From a virus (Duplodnaviria > Heunggongvirae > Uroviricota > Caudoviricetes): a stretch of 64,000 bases of DNA. A model generated the notes under the pieces. That model was given only the letters and a program-made list of their open reading frames with translations. It made no database searches and was not told the DNA's origin. Shown piece by piece: positions 4,025 to 64,000 of the stretch. Numbering within the stretch: position 1 is the stretch's first letter; every line of letters begins with the position of its first letter. The DNA lies in IMG/VR virus record IMGVR_UViG_3300011115_000934, positions 33,983 to 97,982 of that record; one strand, written 5' to 3'. The translations under genes were made by a program, and so were the position numbers.

Positions 4025-5599
4025 ATGTCACAACAAGATATCAAACAAATAGTTGCACAGGAATACGTAAAGTGTGCAAAAGATCCGGCATACTTCATGA
4101 AGAAGTATTGCTATATTCAACATCCAACAAGAGGTAGAATTTTATTTAACCTCTATCCGTTCCAAGAAGGAGTATTACATTTATTCAGAGATGAAAAAAT
4201 GTTAATAACTCTTAAGTCAAGACAGTTAGGAATATCAACACTAGCCTCAGCATACGCTTTATGGTTAATGATCTTCCACAAAGATAAAAACGTACTAGCA
4301 TTAGCGATTACTCAAGCAACAGCTAGAAACCTTGTAACCAAAACAATTTTCATGTATGAGAATTTACCAAAATGGTTACAACTTCCTTTCTTAGAAAAGA
4401 ATAAGCTATCAATGAGACTTAAAAACGGTTCTAAAATAACAGCTAAATCTTCCAATTCAGATGCAGCTCGTTCAGAAGCAGTATCTTTATTACTAATAGA
4501 TGAGGCAGCTTTCATCGATAACATTGAAGAAACATTTACAGCAGCTCAACAAACACTTGCAACAGGGGGTCAATGTATGGCTCTTTCTACTCCAAATGGT
4601 GTAGGAAACTGGTTTCACAAAACATGGGAAAAAGCAGAAGCAGGAGAGAATGGATTTGTACCCATTAAACTAAAATGGGATGTACATCCTGAGAGAGCAC
4701 AAGACTGGAGAGATGAACAATCAAGACAATTAGGAGAAAAGCATGCAGCACAGGAATGTGATTGTGATTTCTTATCATCTGGAGATACAGTAATAGAAGT
4801 TGAGAATATGACCTTTTATGAAGAAACCTATGTAAAAGATCCAACTGAAAGAAGAGGGGTTGATGGAAATCTTTGGATATGGGAATCACCTGACTACCAA
4901 AAATCTTATATGGTTGTTGCCGATGTCGCTAGAGGGGATTCTACCGATTATTCTGGCTTCCATGTATTCGATATTGAAAGCTGTACACAAGTTGCAGAAT
5001 ACAAAGGTAAAATATCTCCTAAAGAATACGGAAACGTATTGGTAGGAATAGCAACAGAATATTGCGATGCACTTTTAGTAATAGAAAATGCAAATATTGG
5101 ATGGTCAACAATCGAACAAGTAATATCCAGAGAATATAAAAACCTATACTACTCGTCAAGATCGGATACTGAAACAGTTGAATCATATATGGCCAAATAC
5201 GAAAGAGATAAACTGGTACCAGGATTTACAATGTCTTTAAAAACCAGACCTTTAGTAATTGCTAAGATGACTGAGTACGTTCGAGAAAGATCAGTTATAG
5301 TACAATCAAAAAGGTTGCTAGGAGAAATGCGTGTATTCATATGGAGAAACGGTAAGGCCCAAGCACAATCAGGATACAATGATGATTTAGTTATGTCTTT
5401 TGCTACAGCTTTGTACGTAAGGGATACTGCAATTCGTATGAGACAACAGGGATTAGATCTTTCAAGAGCCACAATGAATGCATTTGTAGGACTGAACCAA
5501 AGGCAGACTGGAGTATATAACGTTGCTCCTAGACAAAATAATCCCTATCTTATGGAAACACCTGGTGGCCAAGAGGATCTTACGTGGCTATTAGGATAA
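4025..5599 (+). CDS. gp17: Terminase large subunit (T4 gp17-like)
   Basis: LKSRQLGIST Walker A region, LLLIDEAAFI Walker B, STPNG motif III, ADVARG nuclease Asp, C-terminal NDDLVM. Confidence 0.95.
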   Translation: MSQQDIKQIVAQEYVKCAKDPAYFMKKYCYIQHPTRGRILFNLYPFQEGVLHLFRDEKMLITLKSRQLGISTLASAYALWLMIFHKDKNVLALAITQATARNLVTKTIFMYENLPKWLQLPFLEKNKLSMRLKNGSKITAKSSNSDAARSEAVSLLLIDEAAFIDNIEETFTAAQQTLATGGQCMALSTPNGVGNWFHKTWEKAEAGENGFVPIKLKWDVHPERAQDWRDEQSRQLGEKHAAQECDCDFLSSGDTVIEVENMTFYEETYVKDPTERRGVDGNLWIWESPDYQKSYMVVADVARGDSTDYSGFHVFDIESCTQVAEYKGKISPKEYGNVLVGIATEYCDALLVIENANIGWSTIEQVISREYKNLYYSSRSDTETVESYMAKYERDKLVPGFTMSLKTRPLVIAKMTEYVRERSVIVQSKRLLGEMRVFIWRNGKAQAQSGYNDDLVMSFATALYVRDTAIRMRQQGLDLSRATMNAFVGLNQRQTGVYNVAPRQNNPYLMETPGGQEDLTWLLG

Positions 5600-56373: not shown

Positions 56374-56535
56374 ATGAAAAAATTAGTTTTAGTATTAGCT
56401 GTAATGGCTTTAGTGGCAGTAAGTTGTAATAAGGTGACTCCGTCAGCTAAATTAACAACAGTAGATTCAACAGCAGTAGCAACTGATTCAGTATCGGTTG
56501 ACACAACTGCAGTAGATACTACAGCTGTAAAATAA
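56374..56535 (+). CDS. Small Bacteroidota-type lipoprotein (53 aa; absent from the ORF track)
   Basis: MKKLVLVLAVMALVAVSC lipobox followed by VDSTAVATDSVSVDTTAVDTTAVK*; upstream CGTATCTTTA motif. Confidence 0.8.
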   Translation: MKKLVLVLAVMALVAVSCNKVTPSAKLTTVDSTAVATDSVSVDTTAVDTTAVK

Positions 56536-56644
56536 AACATCACCCAGTAGATAGGTCCGCCAAGAAAGTCTTTAAACAACGTGGGAACTGCGGCTCTCCC
56601 AATGTGGCTGGAATGTTTTATAAAAGTTACCAATGCTCGCTGTT

Positions 56645-56768
56645 AGTTGATGATGGTGCTAAACGGATGAAAAAGGGTTTATAGTAATCTAGAGTACAAG
56701 CAAATCATCAATCAGAAACCCTGATCTTGTATAAGCCCCGTAACTGATAACTCGGAAGGCTACAAGAA
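56645..56768 (+). ncRNA. Candidate pseudoknotted ncRNA
   Basis: TTGATGAT/ATCATCAA crossed by AGGGTTT/AAACCCT, followed by a CTTGTA/TACAAG hairpin. Confidence 0.45.
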
Positions 56769-56789
56769 AGACCAAGGTTGGTAAATAAA

Positions 56790-56877
56790 GAATCGGTTGG
56801 TGTCAACGGGACGAGTCCTGCTAGGGTTAACATGGACGGTAAGTCTGGATGAGGGTTCGAATCCCTCACCGATTCCA
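56790..56877 (+). ncRNA. Atypical tRNA-like RNA with a long variable arm (weak GCT anticodon arm)
   Basis: Acceptor (G)AATCGGT/ACCGATT(C), T arm GAGGG-TTCGAAT-CCCTC, variable hairpin GGAC/GTCT. Confidence 0.55.
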
Positions 56878-57036
56878 AAATAAAAACTACTTGAGTAAGT
56901 GGGAGTGGTCAATCAACAACCCAAAGAAGTTTCAGGTAAATCTATATGATACAGGACAGGCGAGCCTATAATAGAGTAAGTAGCAAGTTGATATGTTTTT
57001 TCAAGGATTGGATAGTTTTTAATATCAGCGAAAAAT

Positions 57037-57179
57037 AGTCAGGTGGCGGAAATGGAAGACGCGGGATAACTGTTAAAGGGTCCTTATAAACGGAGGTGAT
57101 GCTCCGGTCTGTAGTTGATTTGAGGGTTAGATCGAATCACGCAACTAAACTCATGCAGGTTCGAGTCCTGTCCTGACTA
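57037..57179 (+). ncRNA. Oversized (143 nt) tRNA-Leu-like RNA
   Basis: AGTCAGG/CCTGACT acceptor, Leu-type D arm GCGGAAATGGAAGACGC, T arm GCAGG-TTCGAGT-CCTGT, about 70-nt two-hairpin variable region. Confidence 0.65.
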
Positions 57180-57222
57180 CAAATTTAAGATTACCGTTCT
57201 TTGAATTTAAAAAAACAAAACT

Positions 57223-57528
57223 ATGGAACAAATTTTAGCATTTGTTTTAGGTGTTGGTGCAGTTGCCTTTGTATGGGCAGTTGTGGTAGCGTTTAAGACA
57301 ACAAAAAAAGTAAAACAGATTGAACAAGCAATCACAGGTCATCAAGAATGGATTCAAAGAAACGATGAAATGGTTAACAGAAGAATTGATCAAGAAATTG
57401 ATCGAGTAGACCTAATCTATACAAACGTACTATCAACTCTAGATTCTAGAATAGATAAATTAGATGCAAAATTCTGCCGTGACGGAAAAGCATTAACTGA
57501 GAAATCAAAGGAATTTTTAAAAGGATAA
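57223..57528 (+). CDS. Membrane-anchored coiled-coil protein
   Basis: N-terminal TM ILAFVLGVGAVAFVWAVVVAF. Confidence 0.65.
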   Translation: MEQILAFVLGVGAVAFVWAVVVAFKTTKKVKQIEQAITGHQEWIQRNDEMVNRRIDQEIDRVDLIYTNVLSTLDSRIDKLDAKFCRDGKALTEKSKEFLKG

Positions 57529-57589
57529 ATTAACCCAAAGAACGGTATTCTTTTTAGAAACAATCCTATTTATAGGAAAATATATACAA

Positions 57590-57766
57590 ATGAAAAAATC
57601 ACAATTAGTTCAAATTATAAAAGAGTCTTTAAACGAATCACAGAAAGACACCATAGCTCAGAAACAATTCAAAATGAATTACAGTCAATTGGGTAAGAAT
57701 GAAAAGGAATGGGTTGACGACGAGATTGATAATATAGAATATAAAAAGAATAAAGCAAAAAAATAA
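57590..57766 (+). CDS. Small protein (58 aa; absent from the ORF track), candidate head-internal
   Basis: MKKSQLVQIIKESLNE...; TATTTATA upstream. Confidence 0.65.
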   Translation: MKKSQLVQIIKESLNESQKDTIAQKQFKMNYSQLGKNEKEWVDDEIDNIEYKKNKAKK

Positions 57767-57827
57767 ATCAACCATTAGTTGGTTCGGAAAGGAAAAGTTC
57801 ATATATTTATATATAGAAACAAATAAA

Positions 57828-57983
57828 ATGAAAGCACAACAAAACATACATCAACTTAATAACGTAGCGCAGAGAGCCATTAGTATATGGTCGGATTCGT
57901 TATGTAATGATATTATATTTGAAGGAAGTGTTCTTGGCTTTACGTATAATAACGAACCGAAACAAACCAAAACCGGGATATGA
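57828..57983 (+). CDS. Candidate leader peptide (51 aa)
   Basis: MKAQQNIHQLNNVAQRAISIWSDSLCNDIIFEGSVLGFTYNNEPKQTKTGI*, followed 34 nt later by a terminator. Confidence 0.55.
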   Translation: MKAQQNIHQLNNVAQRAISIWSDSLCNDIIFEGSVLGFTYNNEPKQTKTGI

Positions 57984-58016
57984 TATAAATTATTTATACA
58001 TATAAATTCTAATAAG

Positions 58017-58050
58017 AACCCGGATCAAATAAAAAAGATTCGGGTTTTTT
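58017..58050 (+). terminator. Rho-independent terminator (candidate attenuator)
   Basis: AACCCGGATC-loop-GATTCGGGTT followed by TTTT. Confidence 0.85.
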
Positions 58051-58060
58051 ATTAAAAAAA

Positions 58061-58097
58061 AGTTGCTAGAAAGAAAAAAAGATCATATCTTTAGGCA
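58061..58097 (+). promoter_or_regulatory. Representative of the TTG-N(~19)-TA(T/C)nTTTA host-sigma-like promoter class
   Basis: GTTGC...ATATCTTTA; similar motifs near 39362, 54530, 56315, 58680 and 62348. Resembles the Bacteroidota -33 TTG / -7 TAnnTTTG consensus. Confidence 0.55.
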
Positions 58098-58108
58098 TAG
58101 AAATAAAA

Positions 58109-58672
58109 ATGATAGGAATTTACAAAATTACAAATCCGACAGGCAGAGTCTATATAGGGCAGAGCACTAATGTAGAACGAAGAAAGGAAGAGTATTCTGG
58201 TAAAAATAAAGGGAAAGGGCAGGTAGCATTGTGCTTGTCTTTAGAAAAATACGGTTTCTCTCAACATACTTTTGAAGTAATAGAAGAATGTGCTATTGAG
58301 AATTTAAACAAGAGAGAAAGATATTGGCAAGATTATTATAATGTATTAAAAGAAGGGTTAAATTGTAGACTTACAGGAACCGAGGATAAATCGGGACTAT
58401 TTTCTAAAGAAAGTATAGAGAAGAGAGTCGCTAATACAGACTACAAAGCCTTTCAGAAAAAAAGACTTGCAAGCAGAGATGAACACTTAATTTCTAAAAA
58501 GAAATACAAACCAATCCTCCAATATACAAAAGAGGGGATATTTGTTAAAGAGTGGGAATCCCTTAAACAAGCCGCTGACAGTTTAAAACTATATTATGTA
58601 AATATTACTAATTGCTTAAAAGGTAGGCAAAGGACAGCAGGAGGATTTGCTTGGGAGTATAAAAAAAATTAA
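58109..58672 (+). CDS. GIY-YIG homing endonuclease (SegB-like position in the tRNA region)
   Basis: MIGIYKITNPTGRVYIGQS, ERYWQD, GLNC, NUMOD1 tail (TAGGFAWEY); paralogue of 38730. Confidence 0.92.
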   Translation: MIGIYKITNPTGRVYIGQSTNVERRKEEYSGKNKGKGQVALCLSLEKYGFSQHTFEVIEECAIENLNKRERYWQDYYNVLKEGLNCRLTGTEDKSGLFSKESIEKRVANTDYKAFQKKRLASRDEHLISKKKYKPILQYTKEGIFVKEWESLKQAADSLKLYYVNITNCLKGRQRTAGGFAWEYKKN

Positions 58673-58759
58673 AAAAAAGTTGCTTCGTATTAAATAAAGT
58701 ATTATCTTTATTGAGTAGAAAATAACAAAGGATCTTTGACATATTGGATAAAATTAAAC

Positions 58760-58843
58760 GGAGAAGATCCGGCTGGATCAGGAGCTGCTCTTGAAAAGCA
58801 GTAGCGGGTTACACCGTTGTGAGTTCGAGTCTCACCTTCTCTT
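58760..58843 (+). tRNA. tRNA-Ser(TGA)
   Basis: CTGCT-CTTGAAA-AGCAG anticodon arm, long variable arm, GTGAG-TTCGAGT-CTCAC. Confidence 0.88.
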
Positions 58844-58848
58844 CAATT

Positions 58849-58919
58849 TGCCTGTTCGTATAAAGGTAGTACAATGCTCTTTGACAGCATCGGAGGAGGA
58901 TCGTTACCTCCACAGGCAA
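58849..58919 (+). tRNA. tRNA-Gln(TTG)
   Basis: TGCCTGT/ACAGGCA; ATGCT-CTTTGAC-AGCAT; atypical T loop ATCGTTA. Confidence 0.85.
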
Positions 58920-58928
58920 CAAATAATT

Positions 58929-59074
58929 GTAAGTATTGAAAGCCCATCCCAACACTTGATCAGTAAGTAGGACGGTTAGTAAAGAAAGCATTATCAGTAA
59001 GTAGTGGAGAAATCCATGCGGAGAAAACGATGCAAGACGCAAGTACAGGGAACCAGCCCGATGGCTTTGCTTAC
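58929..59074 (+). ncRNA. Candidate structured spacer RNA
   Basis: Closing helices GTAAGT/GCTTAC and AAAGCC/GGCTTT; internal TGGA-GAAA-TCCA hairpin. Confidence 0.4.
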
Positions 59075-59081
59075 GAAATTA

Positions 59082-59157
59082 CTGGATGTAGAGGAGCCCG
59101 GTTTATCTCGCTGGCCTTGGACGCTAGAGCACGCAGGTTCGAATCCTGCCATCCAGA
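59082..59157 (+). tRNA. tRNA-Pro(TGG)
   Basis: CTGGATG/CATCCAG; CTGGC-CTTGGAC-GCTAG. Confidence 0.92.
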
Positions 59158-59162
59158 CAATC

Positions 59163-59233
59163 GCCCTCTAGGCTTTAAAGTGAAGCACGATACTTTTAAT
59201 ATCGGGAAGAAGGAGCATTACCTTCAGGGGGTA
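59163..59233 (+). tRNA. tRNA-Lys(TTT)
   Basis: CGATA-CTTTTAA-TATCG; atypical T loop AGCATTA. Confidence 0.8.
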
Positions 59234-59287
59234 CAAAGTAGTTTTGAGGTTGGCGAATTCTACTATAAAAAAATAATCCATCTGCCA

Positions 59288-59358
59288 GCCTCGTTGGCGT
59301 AATGGGAGCGTATTTCTTTTACATGGAAATGGCAGTAGTTCGATTCTACTACGAGGTA
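59288..59358 (+). tRNA. tRNA-Val(TAC)
   Basis: GCCTCGT/ACGAGGT; TTTCT-TTTACAT-GGAAA. Confidence 0.85.
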
Positions 59359-59363
59359 CAAAA

Positions 59364-59434
59364 GGGGACGACAGGCAAGGTGCCGAGCAGCTCTGTAAAA
59401 GCTCACTGGGTAGGTTCGATTCCTACCGGCCCCA
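59364..59434 (+). tRNA. tRNA-Tyr(GTA), short variable loop
   Basis: AGCT-CTGTAAA-AGCT; GTAGG-TTCGATT-CCTAC. Confidence 0.8.
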
Positions 59435-59447
59435 CTTTATTAACCTT

Positions 59448-59520
59448 GGACCTTTGGTATAGCTGGTGCGTACGCTAGTCTGAAGAACTAGAGGAGTAGG
59501 TTCGATTCCTACAGGGTCCA
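59448..59520 (+). tRNA. tRNA-Phe(GAA)
   Basis: GGACCTT/AGGGTCC; CTAGT-CTGAAGA-ACTAG. Confidence 0.9.
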
Positions 59521-59670
59521 CAAACAAGGAAACAACCCCAGAGTTGGTAAGCGCTTACCCGGACTCAAGAGAAGTAAAGTTACTAGATGGGTGCGTAACG
59601 CCTTGGACTATTATGATTTAACAATGATACGAGCTTCATACGTTCGCAAAATAACATAATAGTCAAAATT

Positions 59671-59742
59671 GGACTTGTAGCTCAGAGGAAGAGCGTTTGC
59701 CTGTTAAGCAAAGGGTCGGGATTTCGAAATTCCCCAAGTCCG
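59671..59742 (+). tRNA. tRNA-Asn(GTT)
   Basis: GGACTTG/CAAGTCC; TTTGC-CTGTTAA-GCAAA. Confidence 0.92.
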
Positions 59743-59750
59743 CAAAAAAT

Positions 59751-59904
59751 GTTCGTATAGATGTGCTGTGGATACGCAGGAAACACATCGAGTGGGTTAA
59801 TGATGGTAGTAGGTATACAACACTCCTTAATACTAGGATTGGAGAGAAGAGCTGATGAATACTACAAGTAATTAACAAGGTTGGTTCGATTCCAGCTACG
59901 GGCG
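59751..59904 (+). ncRNA. Oversized (154 nt) tRNA-like RNA without a canonical anticodon arm
   Basis: GTTCGTA/TACGGGC acceptor, GTTGG-TTCGATT-CCAGC T arm; internal GATGTG/CACATC, GTTAAT/ATTAAC and GTAGTA/TACTAC helices. Confidence 0.6.
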
Positions 59905-59910
59905 CAAAAT

Positions 59911-59984
59911 AGGTAATTAGCTCAATTGGTTAGAGCACTCGCCTGATACGTGAGAGGTTATAGGTTCGATTCCTATATTACCTA
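59911..59984 (+). tRNA. tRNA-Ile(GAT)
   Basis: AGGTAAT/ATTACCT; CTCGC-CTGATAC-GTGAG. Confidence 0.93.
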
Positions 59985-59990
59985 CAAAAT

Positions 59991-60073
59991 GGAAAGTAAA
60001 TCAACTAGGAGTTGAGACCGCTTGCTAAGCGTATCGTGCCTTCGGGCATGGGGTTCGATACCTCTGCTTTCCT
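59991..60073 (+). tRNA. tRNA-Ser(GCT)
   Basis: GGAAAGT/GCTTTCC; loop TTGCTAA; variable arm GTGCC-TTCG-GGCAT. Confidence 0.85.
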
Positions 60074-60287
60074 CAATGTGTTGTTCCCTTGAGAAAGGAA
60101 TAAATATTAAGAGTATTAAATTGATATACTACAACACAGATGAACCCTCAGCATCAATTAAAAACCTATTCCCCGTCCTCACAAAGCATCTAAGGAATGC
60201 AGGAGTAGAATAGTACGTTCGGGGCCTCAGCGGTAAGACGCCGTAAAATCTAAAGTACAACGATAAGTTAATGGGTTCTTATCAACT

Positions 60288-60357
60288 ACCGACTTGATCT
60301 AGTGATCGAGGATATCTCATAAGTATTCTCAGACAAGAGCGTAACTTGTAGTCGGTA
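60288..60357 (+). ncRNA. Non-canonical cloverleaf with tRNA-Pyl-like architecture and a CAT anticodon
   Basis: ACCGACT-T-GATC-TAGT-GATC-G-AGGATAT-CTCATAA-GTATTCT-CAG-ACAAG-AGCGTAA-CTTGT-AGTCGGT-A. Confidence 0.65.
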
Positions 60358-60415
60358 CTGCATCTCCCAAGGGAGAAGGCTCTGGTTGACGATCTGACCT
60401 TATAGATCGTAACAT

Positions 60416-60489
60416 GGTGATTGTAGCTGAATTGGTAAAGCGTCTGATTGTGGTTCAGGAGATTGTGGGTTCGAGTCCCATCTTTCACA
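60416..60489 (+). tRNA. tRNA-His(GTG)
   Basis: TCTGA-TTGTGGT-TCAGG; encoded G-1 opposite A73; two T-T mismatches in the acceptor stem. Confidence 0.82.
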
Positions 60490-60495
60490 CTTAAC

Positions 60496-60568
60496 ATCCC
60501 TGTGGTGAAATGGTAAACACAACGAGTTTAAGCCTCGTAAGCTGCTGGTTCGACTCCAGTCAGGGATA
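60496..60568 (+). tRNA. tRNA-Leu(TAA), short variable loop
   Basis: ATCCCTG/CAGGGAT; ACGAG-TTTAAGC-CTCGT; variable loop AAGCT. Confidence 0.88.
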
Positions 60569-60573
60569 CAAAT

Positions 60574-60645
60574 GGTCTTATAGTTTAATTGGAAAAACTT
60601 ATCGCTACGAACGATAGAACAAAGGTTCGACTCCTTTTAAGACTT
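60574..60645 (+). tRNA. tRNA-Arg(ACG)
   Basis: TATCG-CTACGAA-CGATA. Confidence 0.9.
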
Positions 60646-60646
60646 C

Positions 60647-60827
60647 AAAATATAATTACAAAGCGTAGGTAAGAAGACGTGGAGAGACGTTACGCAAGGG
60701 TACACACTAAGGATAGGACCTCAATCTGCAAGCTTCAAAGCCCAGAGGAATCCCGACTCTCTAATGGTGTGTGAAGCACTGAGCAATCAGAAACCAGATT
60801 CCTGATAAAACTTACTAATTATATTTT
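60647..60827 (+). ncRNA. Candidate structured spacer RNA
   Basis: 12-bp closing stem AAAATATAATTA/TAATTATATTTT; GCGTA/TACGC, ACGT-GGAGAG-ACGT and CTGA-GCAA-TCAG hairpins. Confidence 0.5.
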
Positions 60828-60831
60828 AACC

Positions 60832-60903
60832 GCCCTATTAGTTAAACGGATATAACGAATCTCTTCTAAAGATTAATTCTAGGTTCGATTCCTGGATGGG
60901 GTA
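60832..60903 (+). tRNA. tRNA-Arg(TCT)
   Basis: AATCT-CTTCTAA-AGATT. Confidence 0.9.
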
Positions 60904-60977
60904 CAAAAAAATCGTCTTGGTAAAACAAGTTAAGTGACAGGGCCAAGTCACGGTAGAGTAAGCGATACTCTACAAAT

Positions 60978-61048
60978 GCGTTCCACAGACAAGGTGTCGG
61001 TACGGTCTCCAAAACTGTTACGGCTGGGTTCGATTCCTAGGGTTCGCG
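60978..61048 (+). tRNA. tRNA-Trp(CCA)
   Basis: ACGGT-CTCCAAA-ACTGT; CTGGG-TTCGATT-CCTAG; two T-T mismatches in the acceptor stem. Confidence 0.85.
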
Positions 61049-61126
61049 CAAATAAATTGTTCATAACTTTATGGCTAGTTCTATAATTTCTTAAAATTTT
61101 CGTATATTTATACTAAACGATAAGAT

Positions 61127-61828
61127 ATGAAAAAGATATGTACTAGATGTAAGGAAGAGAAACACTTAGATGAATTTAGTAATTATAAAAGCTCTAAAGA
61201 TGGTAAGCACATTTATTGTAAAGTATGTTCTAGGGATAAATCAAAAGAAAGATACTCTCAAGATGCTGAAAGAATAAAAAAGTATCGTGAGGATAATAAA
61301 GAAAAGATAAAAGAAATTAACAAAGCTTATAGTCTTAAAAATAAAGAAATACTAAATGCTCGTTCTAAGCAATGGAATTTAGATAATAAAGAAAAAAGAC
61401 AAGAGTATGTAAAGCAATGGGCTAGAGAAAATTACGAAAAGAATCATTCAAAAGTAAGAGAATATCAAAATACATACAATAGAAGTAAGTATGCCAACGA
61501 TCCTCTTTATAGACTTGCTCAACAACTTCGATCATTAATATACCAGAGTTTTAAGTATAAGTATAAAAAGCAAAAAAGAACACAAACAATACTAGGATGT
61601 ACTTATGAAGAGTTCAGAGTATACCTAGAGTCAAAATTTGAACCTTGGATGAATTGGGAAAACCAAGGATTGTACAACGGAGATTTTAATTTTGGTTGGG
61701 ACATGGATCATATAGTACCAGCTTCAAGTGCAAAAACTGAAGAGGAGATTTGTAAATTAAATCATTACACCAACTTACAACCCCTGTGTTCTAAAGTAAA
61801 TAGAGATATAAAGAAAAATAAAATATAA
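61127..61828 (+). CDS. HNH homing endonuclease with an N-terminal Zn ribbon
   Basis: CTRC...YCKVC, Lys/Glu-rich helical linker, WDMDHIVP...HYTNLQPLCSKVN; has its own CGTATATTTATA motif upstream. Confidence 0.85.
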   Translation: MKKICTRCKEEKHLDEFSNYKSSKDGKHIYCKVCSRDKSKERYSQDAERIKKYREDNKEKIKEINKAYSLKNKEILNARSKQWNLDNKEKRQEYVKQWARENYEKNHSKVREYQNTYNRSKYANDPLYRLAQQLRSLIYQSFKYKYKKQKRTQTILGCTYEEFRVYLESKFEPWMNWENQGLYNGDFNFGWDMDHIVPASSAKTEEEICKLNHYTNLQPLCSKVNRDIKKNKI

Positions 61829-61832
61829 AGTC

Positions 61833-62339
61833 ATGTCAAAATATCAGAGAACCTTAGTTATTGATTCAAGCTTTATGGCTCGCAGCATCATATCGACTGA
61901 GCGTGCTTTCGTGATTTCGTATAAGGGTAATGCAGAAGTTATAGCTGAACATCCAGAAACATTCGGATTAGTAAATCCAAAATTAGAAATTTTTAAACCT
62001 TCAATCATTAGGGTTTATAAATACGTAAAACAAAACATTCAAAAAGTTCCTCTAACAAGAGAGAATGTTTATCGAAGAGATAATTACGAATGTGTTTATT
62101 GTGGATCAAGCCACATCAAGTCACTAACACTTGATCATGTCATTCCACAATCAAAAGGTGGAGAAAATGCTTGGGATAATTTAGTAACAGCTTGTAGAAG
62201 TTGCAATTCAGAAAAAGCAGATTTAACTCTGGAGGAATATGGTAAAGAAATAGTAGAACCAAAAAGACCTCATTATCTGATGCTGATGAAACAACTAACA
62301 CACATTCCAGTGGAATGGGAAAAGTTTTTATTTTTCTAA
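61833..62339 (+). CDS. HNH endonuclease (McrA/HNH_5-like)
   Basis: RDNYECVYCG...TLDHVIPQSKGGENAWDNLVTACRSCN. Confidence 0.92.
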   Translation: MSKYQRTLVIDSSFMARSIISTERAFVISYKGNAEVIAEHPETFGLVNPKLEIFKPSIIRVYKYVKQNIQKVPLTRENVYRRDNYECVYCGSSHIKSLTLDHVIPQSKGGENAWDNLVTACRSCNSEKADLTLEEYGKEIVEPKRPHYLMLMKQLTHIPVEWEKFLFF

Positions 62340-62469
62340 CAAAAAGTTTGGATATTAGAAAATAAGTTCGTATATTTAAGTATAAGAAAAAATAAATCAC
62401 CTACTACGTAACCAACCGGTAAAAAAAATGGACACGTACTGTCTGGCAGGTCAGGCTAGGTGAAAATAT

Positions 62470-62579
62470 AAAAACTGATTTAGAGAACATATGCGGGAAA
62501 TAGTTGCAGCATAGATTAAAGTGCATACAACAAGTATATGGGTCCTACGATAAGGATACAAATCAACTAAATCAGTTTT
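62470..62579 (+). ncRNA. Candidate structured spacer RNA
   Basis: Perfect 13-bp closing stem AAAACTGATTTAG/CTAAATCAGTTTT enclosing several short hairpins. Confidence 0.5.
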
Positions 62580-62584
62580 AATTT

Positions 62585-62654
62585 GGGCAGGATGGTTATG
62601 GAGACCGGCAGGATTGCAAACTCTGCAGAGTAAGTTCGATTCTTACCTTGCCCT
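62585..62654 (+). tRNA. tRNA-Cys(GCA)
   Basis: GGGCAGG/CTTGCCC, loop TTGCAAA, U73 discriminator. Confidence 0.85.
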
Positions 62655-62749
62655 CATTGAAGGTTCGACCCTCTACCAAATGTGTTACACCCACAGATGG
62701 ACAACGAGAGGGAGCTACCGATTGATAAGTGACCGCACATGCGGTAAAT

Positions 62750-62823
62750 GCCCGAGTGGTGGAACTGGTAGACACGGCAGCCTTAGAAGCTGTAAATTGG
62801 GGGTTCGATTCCCCCCTTGGGTA
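62750..62823 (+). tRNA. tRNA-Leu(TAG), short variable loop
   Basis: GCCCGAG/CTTGGGT; GCAGC-CTTAGAA-GCTGT; variable loop AAATT. Confidence 0.88.
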
Positions 62824-62828
62824 CAAAA

Positions 62829-62895
62829 TTACAGTTAGCTTATAGTAAAGCAGCAGGGGCTAACCTGGAGAACGGATACGAGAACCGGCTGTAAT
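62829..62895 (+). pseudogene. Degenerate tRNA-like RNA
   Basis: TTACAGT/GCTGTAA acceptor, GCT/AGC D stem, CAGG-GGCTAA-CCTG 6-nt loop, aberrant T arm. Confidence 0.5.
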
Positions 62896-62902
62896 TTAAT
62901 TT

Positions 62903-62975
62903 GCTTCCTTAGCTCAATTGGCAGAGCACTTGTTTTGTAAACAAGAGGTTATCGGATCGTGGCCGGTAGGAAGCT
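62903..62975 (+). tRNA. tRNA-Thr(TGT)
   Basis: GCTTCCT/AGGAAGC; CTTGT-TTTGTAA-ACAAG; atypical T loop ATCGTGG. Confidence 0.88.
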
Positions 62976-63060
62976 CAAAAGATGAATTCGATCACACCTA
63001 GGGTTAGTGATTTAATTAAAGGATCCATTCAGTACACAAGGCTGAGATTCATCTTCAATT

Positions 63061-63133
63061 GCGATTATAGTGTTCAACGGTAGCACGTGGGCCTTCCAAG
63101 TCTGAAGTTTCGGTTCGAATCCGAATAATCGCT
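63061..63133 (+). tRNA. tRNA-Gly(TCC)
   Basis: GCGATTA/TAATCGC, loop CTTCCAA, U73. Confidence 0.9.
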
Positions 63134-63184
63134 CAGGGGTATGTAGGAGCCCAAGAGTATGTGATGAGCATACACCTACAACTT

Positions 63185-63256
63185 GCTGCCATCGTCTAAC
63201 GGCTAGGACCTATGGTTTTCATCCATAAAATCGGAGTTCGATTCTCCGTGGCAGTA
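63185..63256 (+). tRNA. tRNA-Glu(TTC)
   Basis: TATGG-TTTTCAT-CCATA. Confidence 0.92.
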
Positions 63257-63260
63257 CGAA

Positions 63261-63307
63261 ACCAGAAAGGCCATTGTTCACAACCTCTGGTGCGAAAAAG
63301 GTGAACA
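63261..63307 (+). ncRNA. Candidate H-type pseudoknot
   Basis: ACCAGA/TCTGGT crossed by TGTTCAC/GTGAACA. Confidence 0.45.
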
Positions 63308-63366
63308 CGAGGTTAAGGTACACTCGTAATAACAATATCTTGACAACCTGGAACAGACAGGTAACT

Positions 63367-63439
63367 GGGGTCATAGCTCAATTGGCTGAGCGCTATCTTT
63401 GCACGGTAGAGGATGTGGGTTCGAATCCCATTGGCTCCA
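63367..63439 (+). tRNA. tRNA-Ala(TGC)
   Basis: GGGGTCA/TGGCTCC with G3-U70; loop TTTGCAC. Confidence 0.93.
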
Positions 63440-63440
63440 C

Positions 63441-63593
63441 AAAACATTTAGTGAGGTAAGACTGGTAGGCTTTTAATCCTAAACCTAGAAATAGGAGGGA
63501 GAGGCTAACGAAAGAACCAAACGAGTAGTTAGTTGAAGGGATTTACTTGAAAGTTAAGTTTGGTGTAGAGTAAATTGTGTAGTTAGATGTTTT
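63441..63593 (+). ncRNA. Candidate kissing-loop spacer RNA
   Basis: Closing stem AAAACATTTA/TAGATGTTTT; loop-loop complement ACCAAAC/GTTTGGT. Confidence 0.5.
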
Positions 63594-63597
63594 AATT

Positions 63598-63670
63598 GGC
63601 TGAGAGGTGTTATAGGTAACATGCTGCACTGTCACTGCAGAGATTGCGGGTTCGATGCCCGTGTCAGCCG
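63598..63670 (+). tRNA. tRNA-Asp(GTC)
   Basis: CTGCA-CTGTCAC-TGCAG; G73. Confidence 0.9.
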
Positions 63671-63676
63671 CTATAT

Positions 63677-63750
63677 CGCGAGTTGGTAGAAGATGGTATC
63701 TCGCTAGGCTCATAACCTAGAGGTCGGGGGTTCGAATCCCTCACTCGCTA
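63677..63750 (+). tRNA. tRNA-Met(CAT), initiator-like
   Basis: Unpaired C1-T72; CTAGG-CTCATAA-CCTAG. Confidence 0.88.
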
Positions 63751-63755
63751 CAAAG

Positions 63756-63829
63756 GTCCTTTTAGCTCAGTTGGTCAGAGCAGCTCGCTCATAACGAGAA
63801 GGTCACAGGTTCGAGCCCTGTATAGGACA
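63756..63829 (+). tRNA. tRNA-Met(CAT) elongator (or Ile2 if lysidine-modified)
   Basis: CTCG-CTCATAA-CGAG; ACAGG-TTCGAGC-CCTGT. Confidence 0.88.
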
Positions 63830-64000
63830 CTAAATTTATCCGATATGAGAGCAATTCAATCGTCTCCAATGTAGTTTTAGCTATTAGCTAAAATTATGAC
63901 TCAGAAATTGAGAATTTGGAGAGTAGTCCCTACCAGCATGACTGGTGTTCAGGCTCCCACGTTTTTTGTTGAAACAACAGAAAATGGTAGAGAAGAAGCA

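Follow-up and report, generated by a model that had tools for sequence, protein, structure and literature searches.

What does a 51-codon open reading frame (ORF) containing all 20 amino acids do at the head of a transfer RNA (tRNA) array in a large phage? The question is raised by a 64,000-nucleotide (nt) stretch of the tailed-phage record IMGVR_UViG_3300011115_000934, referred to below as the window; the record is complete at 161,982 bp and carries direct terminal repeats. The nearest cultured relatives are the Flavobacterium 'immuto' phages, with 75% nucleotide identity across one neighbouring gene. A preliminary description of the window had proposed that the ORF is the leader of a ribosome-mediated attenuator of classical geometry. 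The core of this proposal, a translated leader with every amino acid whose end competes with a terminator upstream of the array, held up in all of the comparative tests that we applied. Our comparative analysis suggests that the region 57778–58050 is a ribosome-mediated transcription attenuator with two states, a reading to which we assign a probability of roughly 0.6. Its putative components are the following.

57778–57809, + strand: P1, a Bacteroidota-type promoter-like motif (GTTG, 20 nt, TATATTTA) that ends ~19 nt 5' of the leader ATG.
57828–57983, + strand: the leader ORF, 51 codons plus TGA, with all 20 amino acids.
57876–57891, + strand: H1, a small hairpin within the leader ORF (GCCAU / AUGGU), from per-sequence folds.
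57891–57960, + strand: H2, the internal hairpin of the leader ORF (UCGG-A-UUCGUUAU with AUAACGAACCGA).
57973–58023, + strand: the antiterminator, a three-way junction, from folding and covariation.
58018–58050, + strand: the intrinsic terminator, with the stem 58018–58026 / 58037–58045 and a U-run at 58045–58050, from folds.

The leader ORF, which was borne out at 57828–57983 with its 51 codons and its full set of amino acids, belongs to a sizeable family. A protein search returned homologues in more than 100 clusters (44–60 amino acids, 47–96% identity), none of them with a Pfam domain, and a chance, unconserved ORF was rejected on these grounds. The ORF lies on 52 viral contigs, the longest of 173 kb, and on two contigs of metagenome-assembled genomes, which were the sole matches in the genome collection and are both uncultured-bacterium assemblies, giving 54 loci. 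It is open in the window and in 54/54 related loci, the ATG is invariant, the stop position is conserved, and the lengths observed differ only by multiples of three. Selection thus acts on translation. The remaining five frames of the region contain 1.7–4.8 stops per sequence. A tblastn search of the peptide against 50,697 phage records gave nothing below E = 4 and no cultured-phage homologue, and single-protein scans with two diverged members (P0129 and P0130) gave no match in the viral contigs. A 51-amino-acid ORF that precedes the tRNA-Ser of Flavobacterium phage immuto was considered as possible kin and rejected, as BLASTP produced no alignment; that ORF is devoid of Asn and Trp and has no terminator 3' of it.

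The ORF, the terminator and the tRNA array occur together in 54/54 related loci and in two diverged ones. In all 54 loci the array, of up to 23 genes, lies 3' of the ORF on the same strand, and it usually starts within a few hundred nt of the ORF, with Ser(UGA) where ARAGORN calls it. The gene upstream of the leader varies: a homologue of a 101-amino-acid gene is found ~70 to 1000 nt away, and an upstream 58-amino-acid gene is present in four loci only. By these sequence criteria, the leader ORF is a conserved, phage-specific and evidently translated element that is tied to tRNA arrays.

In the RNA of this region, alternative terminator and antiterminator structures compete, and covariation links the end of the ORF to the terminator arm. 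The terminator that the preliminary description had placed downstream of the leader is real according to the folds. Its 9-bp GC-rich stem closes a 10-nt A-rich loop and is followed by six U in the window and by 6–9 U across the family; it had escaped a simple terminator scan owing to the length of the loop. Four pairs of the stem carry compensatory changes (RNAalifold), and wherever a terminator was called, its 5' arm begins 30–36 nt 3' of the stop codon. The complementarity described earlier between CCGGG (57973–57977) at the end of the ORF and CCCGG (58019–58023) in the terminator 5' arm was confirmed. The antiterminator is not limited to these 5 bp, as had been assumed, and is instead a three-way junction of about −12.5 kcal/mol, closely matched in stability to the terminator (−12.3 kcal/mol). 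In its outer helix, 57973–57982 (CCGGGAUAUG) pairs with 57999–58003 and 58019–58023, and the two inner hairpins occupy 57984–57998 and 58007–58018. The 5' strand of this helix runs from the last codons into the stop codon, of which it takes up the first two bases. When folded from the final 24 nt of the ORF through the terminator 5' arm, the RNA adopted the three-way junction as its minimum-free-energy structure in 42/42 distinct sequences. Co-transcriptional folding of the window sequence gave the same order of events: the junction is the minimum-free-energy structure when the transcript ends at 58027–58037, and the terminator prevails only once its 3' arm has been made.

The pairing between the two ends is maintained through sequence change. 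The last codons of the ORF change in concert with both terminator arms, and the pairs seen across the family include CCGGG/CCCGG, CCGAG/CUCGG, GAUUUGGG/CCCAAAUC and GAUCUGGG/CCCGGAUC, a further pair in which GGUACC meets a GGUACC that arises just 5' of the terminator arm, and UCGGG/CCCGA in the diverged locus L062. Among 28 distinct combinations, the duplex energy averaged −10.3 kcal/mol for cognate partners, −8.6 kcal/mol for non-cognate partners and −4.5 kcal/mol for shuffled ORF ends, and 0/5000 permutations reached the cognate mean (p < 1/5000). In the alignment of 43 sequences, the 5-bp core helix (columns 186–190 with 237–241) was 85% paired, as compared to 46–53% when slid by one column; its pair counts beat both neighbouring registers, and its covariation score was reached by 0/500 shuffles. 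The spacing between leader and terminator is wide enough to let the terminator form while a ribosome terminates next to it, and a ribosome on the last codons would, by established footprint sizes, cover the 5' strand of the antiterminator.

The composition of the leader peptide is the second line of evidence. Windows with all 20 amino acids are rare in the proteins of this phage (~0.7% of 46-residue and ~1.1% of 51-residue windows), and among the 72 small ATG-initiated ORFs in the window, the leader is the only one that has them all. Across the family, 123 of the 139 distinct peptides contain the full set. A profile search of 1.84 billion cluster representatives yielded 23 small relatives of 44–54 amino acids. 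Clustering at 50% identity gave 24 representatives with that of the window included: 17 have all 20 amino acids, six have 19 and one has 18, as compared to an expected number of complete members of 0.7 from the pooled family composition and 4.4 from column-independent resampling. Below 70% identity, 23/36 members still keep all 20. In these 36 representatives, residues that are lost at their usual place tend to be found elsewhere. His is present at another position in 13/17 members without the usual His, as compared to 3/19 of those that keep it (p = 3e-4), and Trp in 8/9 members without the usual Trp, as compared to 5/27 (p = 3e-4). His is found at at least eight different positions across the family, and Pro, Tyr, Arg, Glu and Phe follow the same trend. 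These sequence patterns indicate that at least one copy of each amino acid is under selection in the leader, beyond what inheritance would give.

The codons themselves are constrained. At conserved residues, the third-position entropy is 0.146 bits in the leader and 0.53–0.67 bits in neighbouring genes, so that codon identity is conserved about fourfold more tightly; the proteins of the neighbouring genes are mostly only 45–60% identical over the same loci. The conserved codons include TCG (39/42 sequences), GGC (42/43), CCG (39/44) and AGA (44/44). The blocks CAAAACATACATCAA (57840–57854) and GCGCAGAGA (57867–57875) are invariant at all three codon positions, diverged phages included. The preliminary description had called the ORF unusually rich in G/C-ending codons. 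With regard to rare codons, this claim proved stronger than stated: ten of the 51 leader codons (GCG, GCC, TCG twice, GGC, ACG, CCG, ACC twice and GGG) have a relative use below 10%, and G-ending codons make up 6/16 of the four-fold boxes, as compared to 3.9% in the long ORFs of the window. The overall GC content at third positions is not extreme, and an enrichment in this respect was rejected (0.31 vs 0.21, a value matched by 9.5% of gene windows). Such a codon pattern looks unlike that of an ordinary protein gene and would be expected of a leader in which the RNA as well as the kinetics of decoding are important. Taken with the retained full set of amino acids, the conserved rare codons are consistent with multivalent sensing.

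The internal hairpin that had been noted in the leader is present, with 57891–57903 pairing with 57949–57960 over 12 bp with one bulged A. About 91% of the H2 cells are paired in 43 sequences; its arms are almost invariant, with one compensatory pair in L044, and in the L040 clade the two arms no longer pair or do so in a shifted register. H2 may be a pause or structural element. H1 has variant arm pairs in other clades (GCCAA/UUGGU and CUGAC/GUCAG), and its column-wise support is weak. A globally conserved RNA fold of the ORF was rejected, as RNAalifold retains only the terminator and 6 bp of H2. An anti-antiterminator of the trp 1:2 type was not found: neither H1 nor H2 overlaps the strand that forms the antiterminator, and conserved competing pairings are absent. 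Such an element is typical of trp and is no requirement for ribosome-mediated attenuators as a class. The 'classical' geometry of the preliminary description therefore stands for its core of leader, terminator and antiterminator, and gives way to a two-state arrangement in place of the trp-type anti-antiterminator.

From these elements, we propose the following mechanism. The host-type promoter P1 would start a short transcript, and the 51-codon ORF would be translated during its synthesis. The last four codons and the stop codon would serve as the 5' strand of the antiterminator, which would sequester the terminator 5' arm ~35 nt downstream. When a ribosome that follows close behind the polymerase reaches the last codons or the stop, it would cover this strand, the terminator would fold, and the transcript would end at ~58050. 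If the ribosome were delayed anywhere in the ORF, or had never been loaded, the antiterminator would form first and the polymerase would read through. The array would then be entered directly in most relatives and, in this phage, after an endonuclease gene. Since the leader includes every amino acid, and several of its codons are very rare, the ribosome would be expected to slow down when almost any charged tRNA is in short supply. The switch would thus report general decoding capacity, and the tRNA output of the phage would rise when decoding is poor. We infer in this scheme that P1 fires, that translation is coupled to transcription, that stalling alters termination and that read-through matters for tRNA output despite the promoters downstream. 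More broadly, we tentatively propose, at a little short of even odds, that Flavobacterium-type large phages carry a sensor of all charged tRNAs, in which the decoding speed of a complete leader sets the transcription of their own tRNA array.

The effect of read-through depends on what lies beyond the terminator, where the window contains the following features.

58062–58093, + strand: P2, a promoter-like motif directly 3' of the terminator.
58109–58672, + strand: a GIY-YIG / NUMOD homing endonuclease gene of 187 amino acids (PF01541, PF22083 and PHROG homing-endonuclease families).
58679–58710, + strand: P3, a further copy of the promoter-like motif, 3' of the endonuclease gene.
58734–58758, + strand: a conserved motif (TTGACATATTGGATAAAATT) immediately 5' of the first tRNA.
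58760–58842, + strand: a Ser(UGA)-type tRNA, the first of the array, from Rfam.
58760–63830, + strand: the tRNA array, ~20 tRNA genes and tRNA-like RNAs, from ARAGORN and Rfam.

All of the coordinates and motifs in the preliminary description of these surroundings were correct; the endonuclease gene, P1 and the first tRNA had been overlooked. The promoter-like motifs that it had reported near 58061 and 58680 are P2 and P3. The motif GTTG-N18-21-TATNTTTA, which we take to be of the Bacteroidota −33/−7 promoter type, occurs eight times in the window, at 2109, 27072, 45459, 54285, 56314, 57778, 58062 and 58679, in every case on the + strand, as compared to 0.66 expected copies. At least five of these (54285, 56314, 57778, 58062 and 58679) lie just 5' of gene starts. 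A related motif, TTG-N17-22-TAnnTTT, is found upstream of the leader ORF in 38/54 loci, and the other loci have variant −7 boxes.

The Ser(UGA) tRNA at 58760–58842 is of type II, was missed by ARAGORN and scored below threshold in Rfam as a tRNA-Sec (37.6 bits). A homing endonuclease at the junction of switch and array is found only in the window and in L002, with 79% identity. Directly 5' of the tRNA-Ser, a nearly invariant motif, GTTCATTGACATATTGGATAAAATT, is present in almost all relatives (e.g. L057:3288–3314), and its counterpart at 58734–58758 could function in processing, as a promoter element or as a binding site. Between P2 and the leader of the tRNA-Ser, several relatives (L008, L010, L016–L019, L022, L026, L028, L031, L042 and L048, e.g. 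L048:4274–4345) have a conserved tRNA-like element that starts with GGGGCGGTGGTAAA, contains a GGTTCGA T-arm and is not called by ARAGORN. Further into the array of the window, Rfam detects a tRNA at 62585–62654 (34.4 bits) that ARAGORN missed; it lies ~95 nt ahead of the tRNA-Leu(UAG), in the place of the tRNA-Cys(GCA) of relatives.

Diverged and rearranged loci illustrate how the unit is kept. L057, a 138-kb viral contig with a leader of ~40% identity, has P1, a 51-codon ORF with all 20 amino acids, the terminator, P2, the motif preceding the first tRNA and 16 tRNAs, and the end of its ORF (UCCGG G) pairs with the terminator arm. In L062, the leader ORF lies inside the array, between tRNA-Arg and tRNA-Cys, and the tRNA-Cys starts ~9 nt past the U-run with no promoter motif between them. 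In L017, a deletion (4040–4090) has removed the terminator 3' arm and P2 and fused the leader directly to the tRNA-like gene and the array, and this locus looks like a natural constitutive read-through variant. The P2-like motif is also missing in L051 and L062. Considered jointly, these loci argue that P1 transcripts can serve the array.

Several observations weigh against the attenuator reading. A P2-like motif follows the terminator in at least 40/54 loci, and the window has two such motifs (58062 and 58679) as well as the homing endonuclease gene before the array. The array is probably also transcribed without read-through, which in this phage would first enter the endonuclease gene. Given a promoter-like motif after the terminator in most relatives, the switch would therefore only add to array transcription and not be its sole gate. 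With regard to composition, strict completeness was rejected, as 16 of the 139 peptides are short of one residue (Cys in seven, His in four, Val in three and Arg in two), and in the 36 representatives below 70% identity the loss of Cys is not compensated by Cys elsewhere. Both the all-20 and the covariation statistics ignore shared ancestry. Runs of regulatory codons are absent, and, in contrast to trp, read-through is the predicted outcome when the leader is not translated. The pair counts of H1 and H2 show almost no covariation, and their selection as structures is unproven; the invariant blocks at codons 5–9 and 14–16 match no supported predicted helix. Finally, tRNAs for Lys, Tyr and Trp were not called by ARAGORN or Rfam in the array at 58760–63830. 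Most relatives encode these three at fixed array positions, and no tRNAs were found in the 2.7 kb past the window. The idea that the leader mirrors the phage's own tRNA set was rejected for the lack of the three called tRNAs.

The alternative that survives best grants a real switch and makes it a sensor of coupling or translation initiation in general (host shut-off, ribosomes, or nucleoside triphosphates as in pyrBI), or a device that times or limits the leader unit. A two-state design would produce read-through upon any delay, failed ribosome loading included, and both the absence of codon runs and the likelihood that the array has promoters of its own agree with such a role. However, general sensing leaves unexplained why every amino acid is retained by relocation, and it accounts neither for the conserved, very rare codons nor for the constant tie to tRNA arrays. 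We consider it unlikely as a full explanation, and it does not exclude a sensor of charged tRNAs.

The sequence could also be read as an ordinary small-protein gene with its own promoter and a plain terminator, whose peptide acts in trans and whose pairing and full composition are incidental. The promoter-like motifs on both sides and the terminator do resemble an insulated gene, the peptide is well conserved (e.g. W21 and GF.YNN.PK), and phage gene order is often kept by descent alone. However, the synonymous sites are about four times more constrained than those of neighbouring genes, the C-terminal residues and the terminator arms vary together, and His and Trp move instead of being fixed at structural positions. 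Whereas the upstream genes change from locus to locus, the ORF remains beside the tRNA genes and, in L062, lies within the array. The peptide has no family in Pfam (E up to 1) or PHROGs (E up to 0.01), and an AlphaFold2 model showed no confident fold, with a mean pLDDT of 53, a pTM of 0.21 and values below 50 in the most conserved block. Such a gene fits the data poorly, and we regard this explanation as distinctly unlikely.

Selection on the transcript itself is a further consideration. The terminated RNA of ~230 nt might be the product, an abundant early small RNA (sRNA), possibly of dual function and active in trans, to whose biogenesis or stability the ORF and the alternative pairing would contribute. 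In favor of this, the unit includes a promoter-like motif and a terminator, and the nucleotide conservation at codons 5–9 and 14–16 falls outside any predicted helix. An attenuator-derived sRNA, rnTrpL, offers a precedent (PMC6614838). On the other hand, the frame is kept across many length differences, so that translation matters, no target complementarity was identified, and there is no Rfam match. An sRNA function is compatible with attenuation; as the principal role of the locus it seems improbable. An RNA-only element, such as a riboswitch or a T-box-like tRNA sensor with an accidental ORF, would suit the strong nucleotide-level conservation and is scarcely credible in view of length changes in multiples of three, a conserved ATG and stop position, the rejection of a T-box riboswitch for want of a conserved covarying long-range or aptamer-like structure, and the absence of any Rfam match at E up to 10 in 56500–59000, T-box and leader families included.

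If the locus is indeed a ribosome-mediated attenuator, it would be the first leader-peptide attenuator known for tRNA genes; none was found in our searches of the published literature. It would also be the first leader selected for complete composition and not for enrichment in one amino acid, and it would extend trp-style attenuation beyond amino-acid synthesis to the tRNA pool itself. To our knowledge, the regulation of phage tRNA genes is essentially unknown. The switch would constitute a direct molecular link from decoding capacity to tRNA supply, a feedback loop that replenishes tRNAs when host tRNAs run short, are cut by anticodon nucleases or fit phage codon usage poorly. It could provide a compact natural reporter of global translation stress, and the family offers more than 100 natural variants that already hold informative compensatory changes.

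Among known systems, the pyrBI operon of E. coli has a leader of ~44 codons; whether transcription terminates depends on how far the ribosome trails the polymerase, and the signal is pausing dependent on uridine triphosphate. There, a close ribosome disrupts the terminator and causes read-through, whereas coupling in the phage leader is predicted to cause termination. In the Bacteroidota, the presumed host phylum, leader-peptide attenuation is represented by the Bacteroid-trp leader of Rfam, which has runs of Trp codons and lies upstream of trp genes; the phage region, in contrast, has no Rfam leader match at E up to 10.

The best-known leader-peptide attenuators are those of trpL, hisL, pheL and leuL, together with the multivalent thr and ilvGMEDA leaders. 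Attenuators of this kind in amino-acid operons (PMC1183508) share with the phage locus a short translated ORF, an intrinsic terminator and an antiterminator that uses the terminator 5' arm. In both, the position of the ribosome would choose the structure, and efficient translation to the stop would favor termination. However, the amino-acid leaders have runs of regulatory codons, whereas the phage leader encodes each amino acid once or a few times, spans 44–54 codons, is conserved at the codon level and has no 1:2 anti-antiterminator that we could find. Its output would be a tRNA array and not biosynthetic enzymes, it is encoded by a phage, and a promoter-like motif usually follows its terminator.

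Why phages carry tRNAs at all is debated, with codon compensation and escape from tRNA-targeting defences both put forward (PMC10264068). The trn operon of Anabaena sp. PCC 7120, a horizontally mobile array of ~23–26 tRNA genes, is induced when translation is impaired (PMC8421152, PMC10272220). This is the same physiological logic as proposed here, but it is achieved by a protein repressor, TrcR, at the promoter and not by a leader and terminator switch.

The closest experimental precedent is the upstream ORF (uORF) attenuator of whiB7 / wblC in Actinobacteria. The whiB7 uORFs vary widely between species, are enriched in Ala and do not conserve completeness, unlike the phage leader, and they belong to a cellular element that regulates a transcription factor and has no sequence relationship to the phage locus. 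The uORF of M. smegmatis has every amino acid but Cys, whereas that of M. tuberculosis is without several (PMC10274678). In this system, which amino-acid shortages are sensed depends on the make-up of the uORF; one Trp codon is sufficient, and basal expression increases when the start codon is lost (PMC10274678). Like the phage leader as we read it, whiB7 combines a uORF, a terminator and an antiterminator into a switch that responds to general translation stress, with the same two-state logic.

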